The translations under genes were made by a program, and so were the position numbers. A stretch of 32,000 nt of DNA from Promethearchaeota archaeon (GTDB lineage Archaea > Asgardarchaeota > Hermodarchaeia > Hermodarchaeales > Hermodarchaeaceae): assembly GCA_048938295.1 (NCBI GenBank), contig JBHLMI010000025.1, positions 11,083 to 43,082 on the forward strand, given 5' to 3'. Shown here piece by piece: positions 2,178-29,795 of the stretch (its first letter is position 1; each line of letters opens with the position of its first letter). The notes under the pieces were generated by a model. The model did no database searches, had not been told where the DNA came from, and saw only the letters and a program-made list of their open reading frames with translations.

Positions 2178-3962
2178 CTAGTTGGCAGGTTCTAAAACTC
2201 CTCGTAATCGCAGAGTGTCAGCACCAATGCGTTTTTGCCGTGAAATCCGAAACTTTCCAAGAATCCCTGTACGGCTCACATGGGGTCCACTGCAGATCTC
2301 TTTAGACACGTCTCCAACCGAATAGACTTTGACTTGATCCCCGTATTTTTCACCAAAGAACCCTAAAGCCCCCTGCTTTTTAGCCTCTTCCGGCGACATC
2401 GTTTCAAACGTGATCGCCAAATCACGTTGGATGATATCATTAACCCATTTTTCAACCTCTGAAAGCTCTTTGGCTGTTAGTTTCCGGTTCAACTGGACAT
2501 CCAGGCGTAGCCGTTGTTTAGTAATATTACTCCCCTTTTGATGAACATCTGACCCGATAAACTTGCGAAGCGCGGCGTGGAGTAAATGGGTCGCAGTATG
2601 AAGGCGTATTACTTCCTCCGAATGGTCGGCTAGCCCGCTGGTGAATTTCTGTTGAGTGGCCTCACGCGAGATTTGCTGATGCCGTTCAAACTCCTTTCTA
2701 AACTCTGTTAGATTGATCTTTTGACCATTTTCTTCTGCAATTTGTACTGTCATCTCAATGGGGAAACCGTAGGTGGCAAAGAGCATGAATGCATCTTTGC
2801 CAGTTAACTCGCCTTTCTCAGCGAGCGTTTTTTCGGCTATTCGGAGCCCACGACGAACGGTATTACGAAATCGTTTCTCTTCTTTTTCAATCTCGGACAA
2901 CACATGGTCTTTGTTTCGAAGAAGTTCATCGTATTCCTTCCCAAGGACCACAAGAACCGGGGGACCTAATTCACCCAAGAAGAATCGGTCAATTCCAAGT
3001 TGAAGTCCTTGCCGAATTGCGATGCGTAATAACCGTCGTATCACGTACCCCCTTTCTAAATTAGAAGGTACTAAGCCCTGATCATCTGCAAGCGCCATTA
3101 TGGCAGATCGAACATGATCGGCGATAATTCGAATTGATCGGAGTTGGTCTTTGGTTGGTTCTTTGATTTTGGCAATCTCATGGATTTTCTCCACAATGGG
3201 CTTAAAAACATCAGTCTCGTAGACACTCGGCAGCCTGTTCAGAACTTGGAGCGCTCGTTCTAATCCCATTCCCGTGTCGATATTCTTTTTCTTCAACGGT
3301 GTCAGCGATCCATCCTCCCCACGATTATAGGACATGAACACGAGGTTCCAAATCTCAACAAACTTTCCACATCCACAACCTGGACGACACTCCGCTGAAC
3401 ATCTTGGGGTATTAGTATCAACGAAAATCTCTGTATCCGGTCCCTGTGGGCCAGTGTCACCGAGAGCCCACCAGTTATCCTTGTAAGGCAAATAATGGAT
3501 GTGATCAGAGGGAATTCCCAGTGCCTCCCAGGCACGTGCTGCTTCTTTATCTGGTGGCACCTGTTTGTCTCCTTCGAACACTGTGAAGTGTAAGACTTGT
3601 TTTTCTAACCCTAGGCCAATTTTGGGATCAAGGAGAAATTCCATTGCCATGTTGATGGCTTCTTGTTTCCAATAGTCACCTAAGGACCAGTTGCCTAGCA
3701 TCTCGAAGAAGGTCAGATGAAATGTATCACCTACTTCGTCGATATCATCAGTTCTAATGCATTTCTGGACGTTTACTAGCCGTTTGCCTTCAGGATGAGG
3801 TTGGCCAAGTAAATATGGGACCAAAGGCTGCATACCGGCGCTTTGAAAGAGGACGGTGGGGTCTAGCTGAGGAATGAGAGATGCCGAGGGGATGACAGCA
3901 TGACCTCTTTCTTGAAAGAACTTCAAGTAGCGTCTGCGAAGTTCTGTTGCGGTCATTTGCAT
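2178..3962 (-). CDS. alaS: Alanine--tRNA ligase, short form (catalytic, helical and editing domains; no C-Ala)
   Basis: Motifs SAGMQPL, QKCIRTDDIDEVG, HLTFFEMLGNWSLGDY, IDTGMGLER, RGYVIRRLLR, editing HTATHLLH and EICSGPH. ATG 3962 is preceded by GAGGA. Confidence 0.95.
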   Translation of the reverse strand: MQMTATELRRRYLKFFQERGHAVIPSASLIPQLDPTVLFQSAGMQPLVPYLLGQPHPEGKRLVNVQKCIRTDDIDEVGDTFHLTFFEMLGNWSLGDYWKQEAINMAMEFLLDPKIGLGLEKQVLHFTVFEGDKQVPPDKEAARAWEALGIPSDHIHYLPYKDNWWALGDTGPQGPDTEIFVDTNTPRCSAECRPGCGCGKFVEIWNLVFMSYNRGEDGSLTPLKKKNIDTGMGLERALQVLNRLPSVYETDVFKPIVEKIHEIAKIKEPTKDQLRSIRIIADHVRSAIMALADDQGLVPSNLERGYVIRRLLRIAIRQGLQLGIDRFFLGELGPPVLVVLGKEYDELLRNKDHVLSEIEKEEKRFRNTVRRGLRIAEKTLAEKGELTGKDAFMLFATYGFPIEMTVQIAEENGQKINLTEFRKEFERHQQISREATQQKFTSGLADHSEEVIRLHTATHLLHAALRKFIGSDVHQKGSNITKQRLRLDVQLNRKLTAKELSEVEKWVNDIIQRDLAITFETMSPEEAKKQGALGFFGEKYGDQVKVYSVGDVSKEICSGPHVSRTGILGKFRISRQKRIGADTLRLRGVLEPAN

Positions 3963-4021
3963 GGATAGCGTCCTCACTGGGTATGCTCAGAATGAAATAA
4001 TGCTCTTTAATTATTCGGCTC

Positions 4022-4342
4022 TTATCGGCGGCTGTATTTCACCGCTTCATCATAACCTTTCCATCGGATTCGCCGACCTGAAATCCAAAATATCAAAAGA
4101 ATAACAACGATTGCAGGGAGTATAAGCCAGGCGAACTCAACTGCTGCATCAAGTGGCGAGACGATTGTTTGAGATGAAAGGATTTGCGGATCCGTTAGGC
4201 CCTGGATAAATGGGGATGCGGCTCCCATCATATAATGGACTAGGAACGGAAGAATCATCACCGTTATTCCAATTGCTATGCCGGCTAGCAGATACAGGAT
4301 TTGTCGCCGATATCGCTGCTTTACTGTTCCTTTCGACACCAT
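4022..4342 (-). CDS. Small two-TM membrane protein
   Basis: Basic N-terminus, two long hydrophobic stretches, basic C-terminus. Same strand as, and close to, both neighbours. Confidence 0.7.
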   Translation of the reverse strand: MVSKGTVKQRYRRQILYLLAGIAIGITVMILPFLVHYMMGAASPFIQGLTDPQILSSQTIVSPLDAAVEFAWLILPAIVVILLIFWISGRRIRWKGYDEAVKYSRR

Positions 4343-4397: not shown

Positions 4398-4853
4398 TCA
4401 TGGTAGATTCTTGTACGCTCGCCAGGTCTCAAACCAAAACAGAGCCGATGCCGCGCCTCCAAAAAGCCAGGCAGCAAGACTCGCGAAGGTGAGCGGCTGC
4501 GGATATACGAGAAGGTAGATGATGAGTGCCGTCGTGAAGAAAGCAGCATAGAATAGGTGACGTGGTAATGCCCGGCGTCCAACCCAAATGAATTGCTTTA
4601 GTACTCCGACTTGGACCACCTCTTCCACTTCATACTCTCCTCGCTCTCGGCGAACTAGTCCCAATTCTACTAACTTGTCTAGATGATACGCGGCCAGACT
4701 GGGGGAGGATAAGTCCAGTTTCCGTTGTAGTTCCCGTGGTCCCATCGGCTCTTTGGCAGATAAAAGCTCGAAGTACACCCGGAGGGTCCGACCGCGGAGT
4801 TCCGACTCTAAGTCAAACGCACGGCGGCGTTCTTGATCGGGTTCTTGACTCAA
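4398..4853 (-). CDS. Membrane-tethered winged-helix transcriptional regulator
   Basis: wHTH motif GPRELQRKLDLSSPSLAAYHLDKLVELGLV followed by two C-terminal TM helices. GGAGG lies upstream of the TTG start. Confidence 0.8.
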   Translation of the reverse strand: MSQEPDQERRRAFDLESELRGRTLRVYFELLSAKEPMGPRELQRKLDLSSPSLAAYHLDKLVELGLVRRERGEYEVEEVVQVGVLKQFIWVGRRALPRHLFYAAFFTTALIIYLLVYPQPLTFASLAAWLFGGAASALFWFETWRAYKNLP

Positions 4854-13843: not shown

Positions 13844-14191
13844 ATGAGCCAGTTTACCTATAGGTTGCAGTTATCAAAGGTGTTGAAAGTGACCCAGGAC
13901 AGTTCCATTTACAAACGGACACGTTACGACATCTATGCCATGCTACTCCGCATCATCATAATTCATGGCTATTGCCCCCTAACCCGGGCAGCTCGCTCAA
14001 CGAATCTGCCCGTGGATCGGGCAAAGACCACCCTGGTGTTTCTTGAAGAGCGGGGCCTTGTCGAAGCCATTGAAGAAAAAAATCGGAGGTTATTTCGGGT
14101 CACAGTCCGGGGACGACAGTACCTGGAAATGTATAAGCGTATGATTGGCTTTGTCGGCATGCCCATGCCCGAACCCGTCACACCGTTTTAG
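13844..14191 (+). CDS. Archaeal winged-helix DNA-binding protein
   Basis: Pattern RTRYDIYAMLL...LTRAARSTNL...LVFLEERGLV...FRVTVRGRQYL. Confidence 0.75.
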   Translation: MSQFTYRLQLSKVLKVTQDSSIYKRTRYDIYAMLLRIIIIHGYCPLTRAARSTNLPVDRAKTTLVFLEERGLVEAIEEKNRRLFRVTVRGRQYLEMYKRMIGFVGMPMPEPVTPF

Positions 14192-14238: not shown

Positions 14239-15195
14239 ATGGGAATCAATTCAAGTGTATATGACACTGTAGTTGTTGGCGGTGGTCCTGCAGGAATCGC
14301 CGCCGCAATGCATTTGGGGTTTCATCAGCGGAGAGTCTTAATCATCGACCGAAAGACAACACCGATGCAATTTGCGAATACTCCAATCCATAATTATCCT
14401 GGTGTGAAACCCCTCGTTGCCCCCACAAAAATCCTTCAAAAGATGAGGAGAGAATTACGTGAGTATAACGTTGAAACCTTTTTTGGTAATGTGATCGGCA
14501 TCACGGGGCAGACGCCAAATTTTCTTATTGACGTCAAATCTGCCCAAGAGACGCTTACAACGGTCACCGCGAAAACCTTGGTCTTGGCAACGGGGATTGC
14601 TCGCAAACATCCTAAGGTCGACGGTGATTGGAAAAAGTGGCTTCCGTTTGCGGGAAAAAATCACACGAGCTATTACTGTCCAGATTGTGATAGTCCACAA
14701 GCTACCGGGAAAGACGTCATCATCGTCAATGCTGGGACAGCCAATAGCGCACTGCACGTGGCTCGGTGCATCAAACCCTTTGCAACGCGCATTCGAATTT
14801 TCATGACCGAAGATGCCTACGCCCCTTACACCAAGGACTCTGAAACAATTCTGAATAAGTCGGGTTTCGAATGGACCCATGGACTCATTAAAGAAATTAA
14901 CATACTAGAACCTGGAAAACGACAGCAGCTTATCACCGCTGATGATCGAACCCTTGAATGCAATATCTTCTTCGTTGCATGGGTTGCTGTTCCACGGAGT
15001 GAGCTTGCGAAACGAATGGGTGTTGATGTGGATACGCAAGGTAATATCATCACTGATCACAAGGGAACTACAAATATCAAAGGGGTCTGGGCTGCAGGAG
15101 ACATCCTACCTATCACCCAAACAGTTGCTACCGCAGTTGGGACAGGTGTATATGCTGGAATCATGATTGCCCACTACTTGTTATCATTTGATTGA
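14239..15195 (+). CDS. Thioredoxin-reductase-like flavoprotein with CxxC and atypical pyridine-nucleotide motifs
   Basis: FAD motifs VVGGGPAG and TNIKGVWAAGD; redox centre CPDC at 14677. The NADPH motifs are replaced by NAGTANSA and MTED. Confidence 0.85.
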   Translation: MGINSSVYDTVVVGGGPAGIAAAMHLGFHQRRVLIIDRKTTPMQFANTPIHNYPGVKPLVAPTKILQKMRRELREYNVETFFGNVIGITGQTPNFLIDVKSAQETLTTVTAKTLVLATGIARKHPKVDGDWKKWLPFAGKNHTSYYCPDCDSPQATGKDVIIVNAGTANSALHVARCIKPFATRIRIFMTEDAYAPYTKDSETILNKSGFEWTHGLIKEINILEPGKRQQLITADDRTLECNIFFVAWVAVPRSELAKRMGVDVDTQGNIITDHKGTTNIKGVWAAGDILPITQTVATAVGTGVYAGIMIAHYLLSFD

Positions 15196-18803: not shown

Positions 18804-18862
18804 CCGCCTTTTAAAGTAGGAATCCTTTGCTTCTATCAGCAGAATACTTGGAGGCATGCAAA

Positions 18863-20053
18863 ATGGATGAAAAACTCCGATTCAAAAACGAACACGACCT
18901 CAAATTAGGACACGTCAAAGGTGATCTAGAACTCAACAACTGCCGACATGTCCATCCTGAAAAGGGTGATATTATCGTCGTTGATGGTCGTGTCTCTGTG
19001 CGTGGCGACGTAATATTCGAGGGCTCCTTACAAGCCGAATATTTAGAAATTCACGGCGATAACAGCTCAGAAATTCATGGTGACCTCCTTGTAGCCCGGG
19101 CAGTGAATGTACGACGAGGCCAATTAGCAATTACAGGATCCACAACAGCAAATCGCTTCGAAATAAACGCCGCTTTAAGCGTCGGCAAAGACTTACAAGC
19201 CACCAAAGTTTCGATTGGCGGTGCCCTCAAAGTCGGAGGAAACGCCACCGTTGAAGAGATCAAAGTTGGAGGGGCAGTGAAAATTGAAGGGAAAATCGAT
19301 TCGAAGTCGTTGGAAGTTGGTGGCGCAGCGAAATGTAACACTGGGATAATCGGCAAGGTTGATGTTGGTGGGTCATTCAAAGCCGATGGTGCTGTTGAAA
19401 TTGGTTCGATTGATGTTGGAGGGGCTGTCGTCGTTGGACCTGGCTCTAAGGTAATTAGAATCGATGTTGGAGGCAGTTTCAAGAGTGATGGTGAAGTGAC
19501 GTTTGAAGATCTGGATGTAGGTGGGGCTGCTAAATTTGGTGGGGATGCTATCGGTAAATCCATTGATGTTGGAGGCGCTGTCTCTGGCGAAGGCTCCATC
19601 ACCCTAGCTGAAAAGCTGGATGTTGGGGGTTCGGTGGTCGTTACAAAGAACCTTATCGTTGCTAAAGAAATTGAGGTTGGTGGGTCTTTGAGGGCGGGCG
19701 ACAAGATTGAATCTCCGCGAATCGATATCGGTGGTTTGATTCAGGGAACTCACATCATTGCTGAGCAGTTCCGAATTGGTCGACGGGGCGAAGTCTCTGG
19801 CTTTGTTGAAGCAACTGATATCACAGTCGAAGAAAATGCTCGGGGCGCTTCCTTCTATGGTGATTCCATCCGTGTGGAAGAGCAGGCTCGAGTAAAGAAC
19901 CTTTATGGACGTCAAATCTACATTGAACGTGATGTCAGGGTTGAAGGTGAAGTCCTGTATACCGAGGGATTAGAAACTGAACCTGGAGTCCACTTCAGCA
20001 AGGAACCGGAGCAAGTCAAGAAACTTCCTCGACCCGAAGACCTACTCAAATAG
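18863..20053 (+). CDS. Polymer-forming cytoskeletal (bactofilin-like) beta-helix repeat protein
   Basis: About 11 (I/L/V)-(D/E/K)-V-G-G repeats at 16-18 aa spacing between 19208 and 19735, with similar beta-strand repeats on either side. GGAGG lies 8 nt before ATG 18863. Confidence 0.75.
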   Translation: MDEKLRFKNEHDLKLGHVKGDLELNNCRHVHPEKGDIIVVDGRVSVRGDVIFEGSLQAEYLEIHGDNSSEIHGDLLVARAVNVRRGQLAITGSTTANRFEINAALSVGKDLQATKVSIGGALKVGGNATVEEIKVGGAVKIEGKIDSKSLEVGGAAKCNTGIIGKVDVGGSFKADGAVEIGSIDVGGAVVVGPGSKVIRIDVGGSFKSDGEVTFEDLDVGGAAKFGGDAIGKSIDVGGAVSGEGSITLAEKLDVGGSVVVTKNLIVAKEIEVGGSLRAGDKIESPRIDIGGLIQGTHIIAEQFRIGRRGEVSGFVEATDITVEENARGASFYGDSIRVEEQARVKNLYGRQIYIERDVRVEGEVLYTEGLETEPGVHFSKEPEQVKKLPRPEDLLK

Positions 20054-20182: not shown

Positions 20183-21220
20183 TTGGTGCTCCGAAACATG
20201 GCTAATGGGAATCCATCACCCAGTGGAGGAATTCAACTTAGTGGTGAATTCAAAATTTTGCCACTTGCAGCTGAAAGCCTTGGTGTCCGTAGCCTTGCCA
20301 CGCAGGTGCAAACAGCAGATGCATCCATTCTCATCGACCCCAATGTTGCCTTGGGTTTCCGAGATAATTTTCATCCACATCCCACCGAATACATCCTCCT
20401 CAAATCATTACGCACACAAATCCTTCAAGTTGCACAGTCTGTAGACCTGATTGTGGTATCCCACTTCCATCATGATCACTTCATGCCTTTCTTCCGGAAT
20501 TATGCCTACTTCTGGTCAAACTCCGATGACGCCGAAACGTTGTATGGTCACAAGAAGGTCTGGTGTAAGGATATCCGGTCCCGGATTAACTACTCACAAC
20601 AAGGACGCGGTTACAATTTCCTGCGGCGCGCTCGAAAAGTAGCTAAAGAGGTCGTATACGCCGATGGCAAGGCGATGAAACTTGGCAACACGCTCATTCG
20701 GTTCTCGCCTGCTGTTCCTCACGGTGAAACCGGAACACGACTTGGATGGGTAATCATGACATCCATTCGATGTGGCGGGTTTTCAATGGTGCATGCCTCT
20801 GATGTTCAGGGTCCAATGGTAAATGAGACGGCTGACTGGATTTTACATCAAAAACCCGATGTTGTGGTTCTGGGTGGACCACCCACCTATCTTGCTCCGG
20901 ACCGAGTATCCCAAGATGCTATTGCAGCAGCTGCAGCAAATCTTAGTCGACTTGGCGAACAAATTCCAATAGTAATTGTGGACCATCACCTCTTGCGGGA
21001 TAAGGAATGGGACAAGTGGTTAGGGCCCATCCAAGAGCATGCCAGCAACCAAGGGAATCAGGTGATGACCGTTGCTGAAGTCTTGGGGCAACCCTATAAT
21101 CAACTCGAAGTACAACGGGAATCACTCTACGAAAGTCATCCTCCCACTGACACCTATGAGGTGTGGATCAAAGCCATCAAGGGCTCTCGAACCCAGATTC
21201 GCCCACCACTGAATCTCTAG
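20183..21220 (+). CDS. UPF0282-type metallo-beta-lactamase-fold hydrolase
   Basis: Motifs AAESLGVRSLAT, LIDP..ALG, SHFHHDH, PHG, SDVQGP, DHHLLRD. The start may be ATG 20198. Confidence 0.85.
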   Translation: MVLRNMANGNPSPSGGIQLSGEFKILPLAAESLGVRSLATQVQTADASILIDPNVALGFRDNFHPHPTEYILLKSLRTQILQVAQSVDLIVVSHFHHDHFMPFFRNYAYFWSNSDDAETLYGHKKVWCKDIRSRINYSQQGRGYNFLRRARKVAKEVVYADGKAMKLGNTLIRFSPAVPHGETGTRLGWVIMTSIRCGGFSMVHASDVQGPMVNETADWILHQKPDVVVLGGPPTYLAPDRVSQDAIAAAAANLSRLGEQIPIVIVDHHLLRDKEWDKWLGPIQEHASNQGNQVMTVAEVLGQPYNQLEVQRESLYESHPPTDTYEVWIKAIKGSRTQIRPPLNL

Positions 21221-21900
21221 AAATCTCCGAAGATTGTTTTCACTGTGGGGGAGGGATGATAAAAGGGACCCTGGACGGGCATGAGCACTTCCTGAAATGC
21301 TTCCGCAAATTCACATCTGCCTTGTAATCCGCGGAGGCGGGCTTTTTGTAGATTAAACGATTGGTAGTAGTCGCTAGTTTTTTCAAGCTGACTCTGGTAC
21401 TCCGCGATTGCCTGGCGTTTCTTGTCTATGCTCTCAGATATATCAACCAAAACCGTAGGTTCTGCTAGAAGGTTGTTGATCTCCATTGTATACAATCGCT
21501 GAGGTCGCCATGCTTTCTCGTGATATTGAGTTGAGTGGCTAGCCCATTCGGCTGCTCGAAGAAACGCCTTATGGGCAACTTGGTGGTCCGGATGGTAGTC
21601 GTTATCACTATGAGATATTATCACCTGGGGTTGGATTTCTTGGATAGTTGGAATGAGGGCATTCGTCACCTCTAAAACTCGAAGGCTCAAATCCTTCTCC
21701 TTCAAGGCAATACTTTTCGCCCCTAGAACCTTACATGCTGCAGTTAATTCTCGTTGACGGCTAGTTGATCCTGTTAGGCAGCATACTGTCACCTCAGTAC
21801 CCCGGTCGACTTCAAGGGCTATTGTGCCACCACACCCAAACGTTTCATCATCAGGGTGTGCTCCAATAACCAATAGCCGTTTAGGCGATGATTTTGGCAT
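21217..21900 (-). CDS. bshB1: PIG-L family deacetylase, probable GlcNAc-malate deacetylase
   Basis: Motifs GAHPDDETFGCGGT and DYHPDH, plus VDISESIDKK..AI..Y.SQ. Divergent from bshA, and the substrate is inferred from that context. Confidence 0.75.
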   Translation of the reverse strand: MPKSSPKRLLVIGAHPDDETFGCGGTIALEVDRGTEVTVCCLTGSTSRQRELTAACKVLGAKSIALKEKDLSLRVLEVTNALIPTIQEIQPQVIISHSDNDYHPDHQVAHKAFLRAAEWASHSTQYHEKAWRPQRLYTMEINNLLAEPTVLVDISESIDKKRQAIAEYQSQLEKTSDYYQSFNLQKARLRGLQGRCEFAEAFQEVLMPVQGPFYHPSPTVKTIFGDF

Positions 21901-22014
21901 ACATACTTGTACCCCGGTTTTCGACCAAAAGGTTTGTGAAAATTAATTTCAACTGCTTTTTTCTGGCAAGGTAACACATATGAACACGAAAGATAGCATG
22001 CCACACGACAGACA

Positions 22015-23121
22015 ATGCGAATCGGTATGACAGTTTATCCTGGGGTCGGAGGCAGTGGATTACTTGGGACTCGCCTCGGTGTTGAACTCGCTAACCGCGG
22101 TCACGAGGTTCGATTCATAACCTATGAAGTGCCCTTTGAGTTACAAGAAGGGCGCTACAAGAATGTGAAAGTTGATCTTGTCGACGTGTTAGAATATCCA
22201 TTATTTCGTTACCCTCCCTATACGGTAGCCCTCGCTTCACGCATGGCACAAGTCGTTCGGAAACACCATCTAGACCTACTACACGTTCATTATGCAATTC
22301 CTCATGCAGTGTCAGCTTTTATCGCTCAGCAAATGACTGGTGTTCCTTATGTAGTGACTTTGCATGGGAGTGATGTTCACACGTTGGGTGCTGACCCCGC
22401 CTATCAGCCTGCTACACGGTTTGCTGTTGAAGCCGCGAATGCAGTCACGTGTGTGACAAAACACATCTGTCAAACTGCTGAAGAAACCCTTGGAGTTAGG
22501 TGCTCCATCGAACCCATCACAAACTTCACAGATCCCACCCTCTTTAAGCCTGATGCCTGCGAATTTACGTTAGGTGAAGGGAAACGGCACTTGTTGCATG
22601 TATCGAACTTCCGCCCCGTGAAACGGGTCAGTGATTTAGTTACTGCTTTTGCGCAGATTGCGGACCAAGTCCCCGATGTGGATCTCCTGCTTATAGGTGA
22701 TGGCCCCACACGACCTGAGGTTGACCGGCTTATCCGAAAATATGAACTTAATAGTCGCATCAAATGCCCTGGCTTCAAACGCGATGTGTATCAATACCTT
22801 CGGTGTGCACATGCTTTTGGCTTAAGTTCCGAATTAGAAGGTGCGCCACTTTCCCTCCTTGAAGCGATGAGTTGTGGGCTTCCCGTGGTTGCGACATCGG
22901 TGGGAGGAATTCCTGAAATCGTTCACGATGGCAGAAATGGCCTCTTGGTGCCCTTCGGCGACATCGATGCTCTTGCCGATAAACTTTATGCGGTTCTTAC
23001 AGATTCCAAGCTGGCAGGAGACTTAGGTCGATCAGCTCGTCAAACTATTCTCGAACATCATACGGCTGAAAAGGTTTTACCCCAGTATGAAGCCATCTAC
23101 GAGAAAGTACTCCAGAGCTAA
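22015..23121 (+). CDS. bshA: N-acetyl-alpha-D-glucosaminyl L-malate synthase (GT4)
   Basis: IGMTVYPGVGGSG, YPLFRYPPY, HVHYAIPHA, TLHGSDV, HVSNFRPVKR and EAMSCGLPVV match the BshA-specific signature blocks as I recall them from Bacillus BshA. Confidence 0.9.
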   Translation: MRIGMTVYPGVGGSGLLGTRLGVELANRGHEVRFITYEVPFELQEGRYKNVKVDLVDVLEYPLFRYPPYTVALASRMAQVVRKHHLDLLHVHYAIPHAVSAFIAQQMTGVPYVVTLHGSDVHTLGADPAYQPATRFAVEAANAVTCVTKHICQTAEETLGVRCSIEPITNFTDPTLFKPDACEFTLGEGKRHLLHVSNFRPVKRVSDLVTAFAQIADQVPDVDLLLIGDGPTRPEVDRLIRKYELNSRIKCPGFKRDVYQYLRCAHAFGLSSELEGAPLSLLEAMSCGLPVVATSVGGIPEIVHDGRNGLLVPFGDIDALADKLYAVLTDSKLAGDLGRSARQTILEHHTAEKVLPQYEAIYEKVLQS

Positions 23122-23161
23122 CCTGCTCCATTTATCTTTAAGCTCGAGAAGATCCCGTCCT

Positions 23162-23689
23162 TCAGGATGGGGTAGTTTGCTCAGTTCTACCAAACTGCTC
23201 CCAGGAAACGATTTCTTTTATGGGAAACCGCGTACTTCGCCTTTTTTGGTCCGGGTATCCTAGGGCGATGGTACAAACGACGGTATAAGACTGGGGAATG
23301 CCTAGAACCTCTTTGAAGTCACTCTCAAAGGCAGCACCACGAACTCCCATCCAACACGTCCCCAATCCTAACCAATGAGCAGTGAGAAGAATGTTTTGAA
23401 CAGCCTGATGAGGATCACACAGGTAATATTTAGGTTGGGCTTCTGGGTTTCCAAGAACAACGATGACCACAGGTGATTGTTTCATGAATCGTCCGTGGGG
23501 ATGAAGTTGTCCTAGTCGGGTCCGCGTCACTGGATCTTGAACGACGATAAAGTGCCATGGTTGTTTGTTTGAAGCCGATGGTGCCCATTGAGCTGCTTCA
23601 AGAATTGTATCGATTTTTTCTTTTTCGACTTTTCGAGGTAGATATTGACGAATGCTTCGTCGGCCTTTAATAATGTCAAGAAGATCCAT
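23162..23689 (-). CDS. Nitroreductase family flavoprotein
   Basis: Motifs RRSIRQY, APSASNKQPWHFIVV, AVQNILLTAHWLGLGTCW, IALGYP. Confidence 0.9.
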   Translation of the reverse strand: MDLLDIIKGRRSIRQYLPRKVEKEKIDTILEAAQWAPSASNKQPWHFIVVQDPVTRTRLGQLHPHGRFMKQSPVVIVVLGNPEAQPKYYLCDPHQAVQNILLTAHWLGLGTCWMGVRGAAFESDFKEVLGIPQSYTVVCTIALGYPDQKRRSTRFPIKEIVSWEQFGRTEQTTPS

Positions 23690-23742
23690 GGTTGTTCATT
23701 TGGGCAAGCAGCTGAGGCCCCTTGAAATAGTCTTACCATGTA

Positions 23743-25512
23743 CTATAATGGTCGATTCTCCTCTTCTAGAAAGAATGTTGCAGATGATGGTGTAAAAGGC
23801 TGGTAATGAGAAACAAGTCGCGTGAAATGCTGCTCTGGACCTATTGACATTGCTGTATCAATCCAGATATAGCTTACTTCTTGACCGAAGCGTTCAGCGG
23901 AGAAGCGACCGAACATTTGAGACAAATAGGTTTGGAGCACTTGCCGGCGTCGGGTCAAATTTCCGATCTGTGCTTGAATCTCCTTTCGATTCGAAGTTTT
24001 AGTTTCTTCGCGTTGACGGGTAATGAGGTTATCTCTTTCCTTTTCGATTTGTGATTCAGCCCTCACGAGCTTCTCAAAGGTTTCAACGATGTACTCTTCG
24101 CTCGCAGCGAAAAGTGATTGAACAACACCCAGGTTCTCTTCGTGGTATCCGTTCTGAATGGCAGACTTGAAGGATTGCAATTCCTGATAGCTTAGAGGAT
24201 TCAGTGCTTCACGTACAAGGCGATGAGCAGTTCGGTTTACCCAGGGATTCTCATAGTATAAGCGAGTGTAACGATAGAAAATTGGCACGATGCTGTTAGC
24301 TGCTCGGAGGGCTGGAGCAACTTGGGCATGGTAACTGGTTTCACCTGCTCCACCTACATGGATGATGACTGGTGCGTAGCTTTGGACAAGAAATGCTCGT
24401 GTGTCGACTCGTGGTGAAAGGAATTGTTCCCAATCAGCTAGATCGGGAGCATTCGCCTTTGTTTCAATTACGTGTGTCGTGTTACATTTTGGACAGGTAG
24501 CAGAGAGGGCGGTATGACCCCGCGACGATTCTGCTGTTATTGTTGGATCAAGGCGTGTTCGATTACAATCTTTTGTAGGGCATTCAAGATGGAAAGGAAC
24601 GTAATCACCCGCTCGTCTACCTATACCCGGTTCATAGCCTAGCTGTTCTAAATTGGCGGCACTTTCATTAAGAGCATGAATTAGGCTTTGCCGATTAGGT
24701 TCAGCAAGCAGAAATTCGAATGCAGGTAGCATTAATTCTCGAATCGCAGAATTGGAAAAAACTTGGAAAAGAATCCCGGTATCCTGCACCCTATTCACAA
24801 TCCGCAACCAAAGATGCGTCGTCCAATCTGAGATGGTGGTTGCTTGGGCATGAGTCGTTTCCAAGGTTTTACAAAGGTCGTTGGCACGTTGTTCATACAA
24901 GTTCTGATTCTTCTTTGTGGATCCAGCTACTAATTCATGATATGTTGCTGATATTTTTTTATTAACTTGTTTCAACCAGTCCTTCGATGGCTTTGGTATT
25001 ACGTGTAAAGGCGACATCCGATATGCTGCAGGAACTCGCAGCGAAAACATCAAGCCACGAGGTCCGGGACTTGGTAGATGAACGACGGTCAATTCCTTTT
25101 GTTCATGATCATGATCACCAACAAACATCACAGGAGTCGCTTGTTGAAGTAGAGCAATTTTTTCAATAGCCGCCATTTTATTTATTACAAACCCAGGTCC
25201 TCCCAAGAGGGCAGGCTGATGTCCCGCCTCAATGACGGCTTCCCGCTCTTCAAGCTTTGTGAGACTCTCCTTAACTTGTGGTGTGACCATCCCGAATTGT
25301 TGGTGGATGGTCTTAATCGCCTGGCATAATTTCTTCAAACGAACTTGGGAGTATAAGGGCTGGTGTTTAGAGTACCTGTCACTTAAAGGCGTGCTCAGAC
25401 TCATGGCTTCCTTGATATTGCGTGGAATGGGTCCCCAAAATTGAAGCGCGGCATCGTTTCCATCAAATATGTAATTGGTAAAGAGTTTACTGGATGGGGG
25501 CTTTGGAGTCAC
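23743..25512 (-). CDS. bshC: Bacillithiol biosynthesis cysteine-adding enzyme BshC-like protein
   Basis: AGHQPALLGGPGFVINK (compare BshC TGQQ.GLF.GP.Y..YK), GDHDHE, SPRVDTR, GGAGETSYHAQ, P.FY and a C-terminal coiled coil. AAGGAGG precedes GTG 25512. Confidence 0.8.
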   Translation of the reverse strand: MTPKPPSSKLFTNYIFDGNDAALQFWGPIPRNIKEAMSLSTPLSDRYSKHQPLYSQVRLKKLCQAIKTIHQQFGMVTPQVKESLTKLEEREAVIEAGHQPALLGGPGFVINKMAAIEKIALLQQATPVMFVGDHDHEQKELTVVHLPSPGPRGLMFSLRVPAAYRMSPLHVIPKPSKDWLKQVNKKISATYHELVAGSTKKNQNLYEQRANDLCKTLETTHAQATTISDWTTHLWLRIVNRVQDTGILFQVFSNSAIRELMLPAFEFLLAEPNRQSLIHALNESAANLEQLGYEPGIGRRAGDYVPFHLECPTKDCNRTRLDPTITAESSRGHTALSATCPKCNTTHVIETKANAPDLADWEQFLSPRVDTRAFLVQSYAPVIIHVGGAGETSYHAQVAPALRAANSIVPIFYRYTRLYYENPWVNRTAHRLVREALNPLSYQELQSFKSAIQNGYHEENLGVVQSLFAASEEYIVETFEKLVRAESQIEKERDNLITRQREETKTSNRKEIQAQIGNLTRRRQVLQTYLSQMFGRFSAERFGQEVSYIWIDTAMSIGPEQHFTRLVSHYQPFTPSSATFFLEEENRPL

Positions 25513-26734
25513 GGTTTGGCTCCTCCTTGGTCGCTCGTCGAACGGCGAGTCCAACGAGAAAGGTTAGGAAGCCTAATGTAAGGATGAGGGCAATTAGTGT
25601 TGCCATATTGGTCACTAAGTATTCGGCATCGATTATGGGTATCGAGCCAAGGGATGTCCATTCTTCCAATTCAATTCGATGAATTTCATAGGTGAATAGG
25701 TCGGCTTCTTCAGCCCGTCGTTGGGCAATATAATCACTGGATATGATCTGCCATAAAGTGACAAATGGTAAAGTTGATGCAAAAAGAGACTGTGTGTAGG
25801 CTTCAATGGGATTTGTTCCCTGTTCTAGAGAAAACAAATCAAATGGTAACCACCCCCATGGTGGGATATACACCATGACCCATCCATGACCTACTGAGTT
25901 AAGGTAATCAACATATCGGTAAGCATTGTCTTCCAATGATCCCCAAATGAAACCACTGGTTCGCGCTCCCTCTTGAAACCAATGCCCTGTCGTCAGATAG
26001 CTGGGAATGCCATAGATGCGTAAAAAGGTTATCAGGAGATTGGATTGGTCATCACAATCACCAATCATGCTAACAATAGTTTCCTCAGGGTATTGGGGCT
26101 CAGTAACTCCACTTGATCGGCTGATATTATCTTGAATCCATTGTATTGCTAAAAGAACAAGCGCTAGTGCATTTTGACGGGGATCCTGCTGTTGACCGGG
26201 AATCTGATCAGCAATAAGTTGTGCAATTTCGATGAGGGTGGCGTTCCCCGTCTTCCATAAGGATGTTCCCCGGGTAAATAGAGAATAATCTTCAGGTTCC
26301 ATAAACCATTGGATATCTCCGATAGTGCCAGACTGGGCAATACTGATGTGTGGAAGCATTGGACGCCGATTGACAACAGTAAAAAGCCATTCTTCATCCC
26401 AACTCAACACTTCTCCAGGCTGCACACGCGAAGAAAGGTTCAGAGTCAAGTGTGGGTTCCCATCAACATCCGCATCGATCTCTATGATCTCAACTGGAGA
26501 CTCATTTAATGTCATTCTAAAAGAGATCTGCTCGCAGGTCTGCCAGGTAGTATTGCCAATGTAACTCCAATAGGGCTCAATTGGCATTGATACATCTCCA
26601 GTTACTTCGAGGGACCCTGAGAAAGACGTCCGCCAATAATGAATATAATTGAATGCTGACACGGGGGGTGGAAGAGTCACTATTACTAATAATAAGAGGA
26701 TTACAGTAATTCGCCATAAACGAAACTTATGCAT
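25487..26734 (-). CDS. Exported, C-terminally anchored transglutaminase-like (Cys-His-Asp) protein
   Basis: Signal peptide ending PPVSA; GDCDD..NLL.TFLR..GIP; GHGWV.VYIP..GW.PFD; C-terminal TM followed by RR. Confidence 0.85.
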   Translation of the reverse strand: MHKFRLWRITVILLLLVIVTLPPPVSAFNYIHYWRTSFSGSLEVTGDVSMPIEPYWSYIGNTTWQTCEQISFRMTLNESPVEIIEIDADVDGNPHLTLNLSSRVQPGEVLSWDEEWLFTVVNRRPMLPHISIAQSGTIGDIQWFMEPEDYSLFTRGTSLWKTGNATLIEIAQLIADQIPGQQQDPRQNALALVLLAIQWIQDNISRSSGVTEPQYPEETIVSMIGDCDDQSNLLITFLRIYGIPSYLTTGHWFQEGARTSGFIWGSLEDNAYRYVDYLNSVGHGWVMVYIPPWGWLPFDLFSLEQGTNPIEAYTQSLFASTLPFVTLWQIISSDYIAQRRAEEADLFTYEIHRIELEEWTSLGSIPIIDAEYLVTNMATLIALILTLGFLTFLVGLAVRRATKEEPNRDSKAPIQ

Positions 26735-29345: not shown

Positions 29346-29795
29346 ATGGAGGAAACTCCCAAAATGTCTAAAGAAACAGAATCTGCTGAGACCGTCGAGA
29401 CTGAAGAAGCTAAAGCGAAAGAACCTTCAGCTGAAGAAGAAAAGGGCAAAAAGGCTGCAAAGAAAAAAGAAGCCAAACCTGAAGCAAAGACAGAAGCAAA
29501 GGCGGAGGCTCCCAAGTCACGCCGCGACGAGAGTGTCGTCTTCGTTGGCAGCAAACCGCTGATGAGCTACATCACTGCTTGTGTCACCCAGCTCAACCGA
29601 AATCCCGAGGAACTCGTGATCAAGGCCCGGGGGCGGGCTATCAGTCGCGCTGTAGACGTGGCTGAAGTGCTCCGAAACCGTTTCATGCCTGATCTCATGG
29701 TGCGTCAAATCGATATTTCTACTGAACAAGTCAAGACAGCCGAAGGCAACGTAGCGAACGTCTCAGCGATGGAGATAACGCTGGCTCGTAAATAA
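29346..29795 (+). CDS. albA: DNA/RNA-binding protein Alba with an N-terminal low-complexity extension
   Basis: Core VFVGSKPLMSY...LVIKARGRAISRAVDVAEVLRNRF...VSAMEITL, preceded by ~61 aa rich in E/K/A. Confidence 0.92.
   Translation: MEETPKMSKETESAETVETEEAKAKEPSAEEEKGKKAAKKKEAKPEAKTEAKAEAPKSRRDESVVFVGSKPLMSYITACVTQLNRNPEELVIKARGRAISRAVDVAEVLRNRFMPDLMVRQIDISTEQVKTAEGNVANVSAMEITLARK

Follow-up and report, generated by a model that had tools for sequence, protein, structure and literature searches.

Bacillithiol (BSH), an antioxidant built from a sugar and cysteine, has so far been measured in bacteria only. Whether an Asgard archaeon might synthesise bacillithiol is the question raised by a locus on contig JBHLMI010000025.1 of a Promethearchaeota archaeon (assembly GCA_048938295.1), a metagenome-assembled genome (MAG) of 2.52 Mb and 91.6% completeness. 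In the 32,000-nucleotide stretch of this contig that was analysed here (positions 11083-43082; the window), a bshB-type gene, bshA, a nitroreductase gene and a bshC-like gene all lie inside positions 21217-25512, a span of 4296 bp. An earlier sequence-only reading of the window had interpreted these genes as a complete BSH biosynthesis cluster in an archaeal host, probably acquired via horizontal transfer.

Based on the present sequence comparisons and structure models, we consider it probable, at about two in three (0.68), that this archaeal-type BshA-BshB-BshC module synthesises bacillithiol or a close variant of it. In the proposed pathway, BshA would act as a retaining family 4 glycosyltransferase (GT4) that joins UDP-N-acetylglucosamine (UDP-GlcNAc) and L-malate to form GlcNAc-malate, as its equivalog-level similarity suggests. 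The PIG-L/LmbE zinc deacetylase would then release glucosaminyl-malate (GlcN-malate), a step to which its family, its metal-site motifs and the gene linkage point. Finally, the BshC-like protein would add cysteine to the free amine and thereby yield Cys-GlcN-malate, that is, bacillithiol or a close variant; this assignment draws on full-length homology, fold and co-inheritance. The resulting thiol would serve DinB-type S-transferases and general thiol chemistry.

Sequence relationships of the three predicted enzymes

The BshA of the window matched the equivalog model TIGR03999 with 371 bits (cut-off 273.7) over model positions 1-375, which corresponds to the full model, and is the sole GT4 of the genome above this cut-off, the runner-up reaching 133 bits. 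Comparisons with the sequences of solved BshA chains in the PDB gave E-values of 7e-92 (2jjm/3mbo) and 2.8e-81 (5d00), and the close relatives of this protein carry the name BshA at both NCBI and JGI. The equivalog-level score argues for a malate scaffold. The adjacent deacetylase matched PF02585 with 82.4 bits (cut-off 28.2), and its best NCBIfam model is TIGR04001 (BshB1). Its top sequence relatives in the PDB are BshB1 (6p2t), BcZBP (2ixd) and TT1542, and the metal-site motifs AHPDDE and HPDH are retained in alignment with 6p2t and 2ixd.

The third protein is more divergent, and the start of its gene has to be defined first. The longest open reading frame (ORF) extends over 23743-25554 (minus strand, 603 aa); a GTG at 25512 with GGAGGA located 8 nt upstream gives a protein of 589 aa that fits the 587-591 aa of its relatives, and the gene caller of the public record picked a later start resulting in 515 aa (P0272). 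The protein scored 68.7 bits with PF10079 (cut-off 27). BshC is the only NCBIfam, Pfam and PDB family that it matched, 4WBD being the sole PDB sequence match. When 1.84 billion cluster representatives were searched exhaustively by phmmer with this protein as the query, 42 clusters were obtained at E <= 1e-30 (the first tier) and, after a gap, proteins of about 540 aa at E-values of 1e-9 or weaker (the second tier). In the second tier, 26 of the 30 sampled members matched the BshC equivalog model TIGR03998, the first of them with 376.5 bits and thus above the cut-off, and the best E-value was 5.7e-178. When the first tier was aligned to the canonical BshC tier with hhalign, a probability of 100 and an E-value of 1e-49 were obtained over 492 columns at 15% identity.

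The AlphaFold2 model of the BshC-like protein, built on the first-tier alignment, has a mean predicted local distance difference test score (pLDDT) of 92.7 and a predicted template modelling score (pTM) of 0.92. Its top PDB match in Foldseek is BshC of Bacillus subtilis (4WBD; E-value 1.3e-21, template modelling (TM) scores of 0.63/0.70) over the whole length, followed by class I lysyl-tRNA synthetase. In addition to a Rossmann core like that of class I aminoacyl-tRNA synthetases, the protein has an insert resembling a zinc ribbon and a tail that forms a coiled coil, and the motifs in common with canonical BshC (GxQP...GGP...K, DxD..E and GPGE..Y..Q) are retained. Judged by sequence and model, the protein is a full-length homologue of BshC that belongs to a separate family. 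All members of this branch for which an organism is named are archaeal (Promethearchaeota, Thorarchaeota, Heimdallarchaeota, Ranarchaeia, Ca. Harpocratesius and Bathyarchaeota).

The branch is marked by a CX2-4C...CX2C motif, represented in the window by C325, C330, C354 and C357 (numbering of the 603-aa ORF), which in the model is located in a four-stranded beta element at residues 321-366. C325 and C354 never vary among the members, at least 90% of which also have C357, and all four Cys occur in 19 of 28; the canonical BshC set has no Cys at this site. Because some lineages retain just two or three of these residues, we infer that the element is a structural zinc ribbon and not the catalytic site. 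A more tentative and rather unlikely idea is that the archaeal branch represents an ancestral, zinc-ribbon-bearing form of BshC which uses an activated cysteine donor or a protein partner other than that of bacterial BshC. The chemistry of the BshC step is unresolved even for the bacterial enzyme (PMC5790435), and the archaeal branch provides a fresh candidate for solving it. As a distinct form that is confidently modelled and has a defined metal element, archaeal BshC might make it possible to reconstitute the final step of bacillithiol synthesis in vitro, for which 15 years of work with bacterial BshC have been unsuccessful.

Phyletic distribution and linkage of the three genes

BshC was first recognised because its gene co-occurs and co-localises with bshA. 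We found bshB, bshA and bshC together in all 14 of the closest loci in a species-level genome collection, hereafter the Hermod-type loci. These come from MAGs titled Candidatus Hermodarchaeota or Hermodarchaeum yapensis, with a few titled Promethearchaeota, Thorarchaeota or Odinarchaeota. A phyletic profile was then compiled from 301 sampled Asgard genomes grouped in families (f numbers). BshA exceeded its cut-off in 134 of these genomes, as a single-copy gene; a BshC-like gene was present in 159 (E <= 1e-15) and the BshB type of the window in 131 (E <= 1e-25). The three profiles run closely in parallel. Numbers of genomes with BshA, the BshB type and the BshC-like protein are 15, 16 and 16 of 18 in f1, 28, 29 and 27 of 29 in f4, 67, 71 and 69 of 76 in f6, 11, 11 and 11 of 11 in f13, and 3, 2 and 3 of 3 in f25, with one each in f24. 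Family f9 has 0, 0 and 5 of 68, and in most other Asgard families of the sample none of the three genes was found.

According to their coordinates, the BshA and BshC-like genes are neighbours in f1, f4, f6, f13, f17 and f25. The divergent arrangement of bshB and bshA occurs in f1 and throughout the Hermod-type loci, and also in f6, where bshB faces away from a co-directional bshA-bshC pair (L043). In Bathyarchaeia bshB is clustered with bshA and bshC. The three gene types recognised in the sequence-only reading are present and functionally linked; they form a coherent module that is inherited as a unit over several Asgard families and Bathyarchaeia. As a separate observation, two f6 contigs (G193:C29 and G268:C54) have open frames of 975 and 966 aa at the BshC-like match, the latter with one TAG, which reach back over bshA. 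Probably these frames are open by chance or result from a frameshift in the assembly and do not represent a fusion, because bshA and bshC of L043 lie in different frames, 15 nt apart.

The Bathyarchaeia clusters provide an independent context. In a Bathyarchaeota MAG the order is PIG-L, Amidohydro_2, BshC-like, Thioredoxin_9, GT4, DinB_2, DinB_2 and MerR, and the GT4 is 51% identical to BshA of the window. DinB/MST is the superfamily of the bacillithiol and mycothiol S-transferases, and the archaeal-type bsh cluster of Bathyarchaeia looks like a thiol-dependent detoxification island. The loci concerned (L045-L047, from the Bathyarchaeota MAG GCA_018648905.1 and two ENA contigs) combine the Thioredoxin_9, Amidohydro_2 and two DinB_2 genes with one for a MerR/GyrI-like regulator and another two of the GyrI-like kind. 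The genome of the window itself has five DinB_2 genes above the Pfam cut-off; among control genomes, the same model matched five bacteria and none of four archaea.

Possible products of the module

Several observations weigh against the synthesis of bacillithiol by this module. The deacetylase reached 106.7 bits with TIGR04001, far under the equivalog cut-off of 182.5, and the BshC-like protein 79.9 bits with TIGR03998 (cut-off 265.8). All 28 sampled archaeal members of the first tier match the latter model weakly (best E-value 1.8e-29) and stay under its cut-off. The sequence-only reading had proposed to look for YpdA/Bdr and bacilliredoxins, but in the 91.6%-complete genome no YpdA/Bdr was found (best match to TIGR04018 72.4 bits, cut-off 339.9), and neither BrxC (TIGR04019) nor BrxA/B (PF06491) gave a match. 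Furthermore, 19 of the 21 genomes of family f21 have a BshC-like gene without BshA or the BshB type, no BshA-like GT4 being detectable in this family even at an E-value of 1e-45. Lastly, no measurement of any thiol is on record for these organisms (PMC7278568). The designation of the cluster as complete has to be divided: only BshA exceeds its equivalog threshold, whereas BshB and above all BshC belong to divergent archaeal branches that remain below theirs, and we infer a complete BSH pathway from homology, fold and linkage and not from membership in the models.

In the f21 loci L039-L041 (G258:C1, G243:C1 and G210:C52) the BshC-like gene is always located beside a class I/II aminotransferase gene, with arginyl-tRNA synthetase (ArgRS) in two of the three, and an LPG_synthase_TM protein and Fe-ADH_2 are also encoded nearby. 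None of these three loci has a GT2 gene within 6 kb of the BshC-like gene, and replacement of BshA by a GT2 was rejected as an explanation for f21. The BshC-like family is not strictly tied to GlcN-malate, and because BshA and the BshB type are missing in f21 it has to be asked whether the module of the window makes a related compound, in which the GlcN-malate scaffold would receive an attachment other than cysteine, be charged from another activated donor, or be modified further, for instance by N-methylation as in Chlorobiota. The identity of just 15% to canonical BshC, the extra four-Cys element and the missing Bdr and Brx partners would be in line with such a variant. We nevertheless regard it as doubtful, as BshA lies above the equivalog cut-off and so points to the malate scaffold, the motifs in common with canonical BshC are kept, and a thiol would be in accordance with the DinB_2 and thioredoxin-like genes found nearby in Bathyarchaeia. 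Still less probable is a function outside thiol metabolism, such as the formation of a GlcN-malate-type solute or an envelope glycoconjugate, with the BshC-like protein in an unrelated ligase role. It is true that in vitro reconstitution of the BshC reaction has not been achieved so far, bacteria included (PMC5790435), and that in f21 the gene stands next to aminotransferase and ArgRS genes without a GT4 or PIG-L partner. However, loss of BshC in bacteria abolishes BSH and leads to the accumulation of GlcN-malate (PMC5790435), all three archaeal genes are tightly co-inherited, and their context in Bathyarchaeia is thiol-related. Bacillithiol or a close variant thus remains the product that we favour.

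With respect to possible redox partners, a Pyr_redox_2 gene at 14239-15195 (plus strand) was considered as a Bdr and rejected, its product scoring 37 bits with YpdA. This flavoprotein reached 131 bits with the thioredoxin reductase model TIGR01292, under the cut-off of 343. It is a divergent, thioredoxin-reductase-like protein whose gene is located about 6 kb from the cluster and adjoins an Sso10a-like gene (13844-14191), and it is a possible candidate for a disulfide reductase.

Origin of the module

The phylogeny of BshA was examined in a tree of 49 sequences obtained by a quick maximum-likelihood search, in which the bacteria are of the Bacteroidota/Ignavibacteria type only, with no Firmicutes or Deinococcus, and in which groups were named only after the tree had been seen. 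BshA of the window groups with f6 and Bathyarchaeia (SH-like approximate likelihood ratio test, SH-aLRT, 94). Another archaeal clade comprises the families f4, f13, f17, f24 and f25 (96), and f27 falls with the Bacteroidota/Ignavibacteria-type bacteria (98). A single clade for the 34 archaeal BshAs without f27 was not rejected by the approximately unbiased test (p-AU 0.382), whereas a single clade for all 39, f27 included, was rejected (p-AU 0.008). In the BshC tree (60 rows, quick search), the archaeal branch is set apart from canonical BshC, that of f27 included, by a long branch with a support of 100. This tree recovers the clade of f4, f13, f17, f24 and f25 seen for BshA (98), so that the two trees are partly congruent.

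The loci of the Heimdall-labelled family f27 (L042, L069 and L070) contain a compact bshC-bshB-bshA operon, the BshC of which is canonical and scores 376-386 bits, above the cut-off; the archaeal types of BshC and BshB were not found in f27. With this operon, Asgard archaea have another bsh system, of bacterial type, which probably stems from a separate inter-domain transfer. The f27 operon (L042) and the module of the window occur in the same phylum and presumably serve the same pathway, but they differ in type: f27 combines a canonical BshC with a BshA of Bacteroidota/Ignavibacteria affinity, and the window carries the other, archaeal module.

The module of the window is old in archaea, has been inherited as a unit and is no recent bacterial import. 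The sequence-only suggestion of a probable horizontal transfer is accordingly not supported as far as a recent event is concerned: the composition is ordinary, the genes are present in about 130 of the 301 Asgard genomes and in Bathyarchaeia, BshA belongs to an archaeal clade, and BshC belongs to a family in which every member with an organism name is from an archaeon. BshA may have been exchanged between the domains in ancient times.

A more trivial explanation would be that the cluster is bacterial DNA, brought in by a mis-binned contig or by a transfer that took place very recently and reached only this genome. The strong similarity to BshA of Bacillus (E-value 7e-92) could be cited in its favour. 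Yet the same contig carries archaeal chromatin and informational genes. Encoded on it are Alba (TIGR00285, 125.6 bits), a PDCD5-like double-stranded DNA-binding protein, DUF92 and DUF116, an Sso10a-like protein, an E2F/DP winged-helix protein and a PRK04286-type metallo-beta-lactamase protein. The same genes flank the cluster in the 14 related MAGs, which originate from independent studies, and the GC content of the cluster (0.455-0.485) is inside the range of the whole window. Also, BshA and BshC of the window are placed in archaeal clades, the 34 archaeal BshAs being compatible with one clade in the test given above. Contamination and mis-binning were rejected on these grounds, and the bacterial-DNA explanation, which we hold to be extremely improbable, is refuted as far as sequence data can do so. 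The genomic context is archaeal, and more specifically Asgard (Hermod-type), and the cluster is no compositional island. This agrees with the host assigned in the sequence-only reading, since the contig markers are archaeal and the nearest relatives are MAGs of Candidatus Hermodarchaeota.

Comparison with known thiol systems and published surveys

The bacterial BshA-BshB1/B2-BshC systems of Bacillus subtilis, B. anthracis, Staphylococcus aureus, Deinococcus and Thermus comprise the same three enzyme families in the same order of chemistry, and structures for comparison are available for BshA (2JJM, 3MBO and 5D00), BshB (6P2T and 2IXD) and BshC (4WBD). The module described here resembles these systems in its equivalog-level BshA, in the LmbE metal motifs of its BshB and in the overall fold and core motifs of its BshC. 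It differs from them in that BshC forms a separate clade with the CX2-4C...CX2C motif, BshB lies under the cut-off, and Bdr/YpdA, BrxA/B and BrxC were not found in the genome. Moreover, the host is an anaerobic Asgard archaeon. The mycothiol pathway of Actinobacteria (MshA-MshB-MshC) follows a parallel logic with a GT4, an LmbE deacetylase and the addition of cysteine onto glucosamine. A mycothiol-type assignment was nonetheless discarded: the scores for MshA (62.3 bits, cut-off 462.5), MshB (47.5 bits, cut-off 224.35) and Mca are far under those of the BshA and BshB models, and the presumed cysteine ligase of the window is BshC-like and no paralogue of cysteinyl-tRNA synthetase.

The core idea of BSH in archaea has been published previously, and the genes already bear names at NCBI, which limits what is gained here. 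For BshA as well as for BshC, Rawat and Maupin-Furlow (2020) counted 39 InterPro hits in archaea, the majority from the Asgard group, and they proposed that BSH may be made by archaea (PMC7278568); theirs is the same gene set as the one considered here. In Asgard and Bathyarchaeota MAGs, the NCBI names are BshA and 'bacillithiol biosynthesis BshC', and JGI uses 'YllA (UPF0747)' for the latter. The present analysis goes beyond the 2020 survey by defining the archaeal BshC branch as a distinct clade with a Cys motif, by the common phyletic profile and the partly congruent trees, and by distinguishing two types of system that coexist within Asgard, next to lineages that have the BshC-like gene alone. 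In contrast to the 2020 report, the pathway was not detected in any archaeon by a 2025 study of NmbA, which searched RefSeq by BLAST with queries from Chlorobaculum (C. tepidum) at cut-offs of 25% identity and an E-value of 1e-20 (PMC12719100). This negative result is explained by archaeal BshC and BshB being too divergent for such cut-offs, and the divergence measured here thus reconciles the InterPro positive of 2020 with the BLAST negative of 2025. The statement in the sequence-only reading that no biochemical demonstration of bacillithiol in an archaeon was known is in keeping with the literature consulted, which reports no detection (PMC7278568) and in which no newer report was found.

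Organization of the locus and additional observations

The features of the locus are listed in the Table. The gene positions, the 4.3-kb span and the 114-bp divergent gap given in the sequence-only reading match the ORF list exactly.

Table. Coordinates of the predicted bsh module and adjoining genes in the window.
Feature	Position	Strand	Remarks
bshB-type, predicted GlcNAc-malate deacetylase	21217..21900	-	PIG-L/LmbE family, 227 aa
bshB/bshA divergent intergenic region	21901..22014	.	114 bp; presumed promoters
bshA, predicted UDP-GlcNAc:L-malate N-acetylglucosaminyltransferase	22015..23121	+	GT4, 368 aa
Nitroreductase-family flavoprotein	23162..23689	-	175 aa; PF00881 119.5 bits; optional passenger
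Archaeal-type bshC-like gene, putative cysteine-adding enzyme	23743..25512	-	589 aa from GTG 25512; four-Cys zinc-ribbon-like element
Transglutaminase-core protein	25487..26734	-	415 aa; PF01841 42.4 bits; upstream of bshC

The gap between the divergent bshB and bshA genes (22015-21900-1) includes an A+T-rich stretch (aaaattaattt) that can be read directly in the sequence, and the bshC-like gene is convergent to bshA. The nitroreductase gene had been counted as part of the cluster in the sequence-only reading. It is found in nine of the 14 Hermod-type loci and is missing in the other five (L023, L026, L031, L033 and L034), and no nitroreductase was present in the f6, f4, f27 or Bathyarchaeia clusters examined. 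As it is absent from five close loci and from all distant clusters, the nitroreductase was rejected as a member of the pathway. On the other side, the start of bshC overlaps the stop of the upstream transglutaminase-core gene by 26 bp, and the two genes are probably co-transcribed. The transglutaminase gene adjoins bshC in every Hermod-type locus that is long enough to show it; it is not beside bshC in f4, f6, f21 and f27.

Rfam and tRNA scans of the window gave no matches. Among the remaining genes of the window, alanyl-tRNA synthetase (2178-3977, minus strand) is a short form of 599 aa that is followed by two small ORFs (4022-4342 and 4398-4853). It matches NF002436/PRK01584 with 759.7 bits, above the cut-off, and the archaeal-type model TIGR03683 with 250.7 bits as compared with a cut-off of 744.7. 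A protein of 408 aa (18827-20053, plus strand) has a C-terminal bactofilin domain (PF04519, 42 bits), here in an archaeon, and the position of its gene is kept in those Hermod-type loci that reach that far. Finally, the Alba ORF as listed (29346-29795, plus strand) encodes 149 aa, of which residues 62-148 constitute the Alba domain; either the true start lies later or the protein is extended at its N-terminus by about 60 residues.

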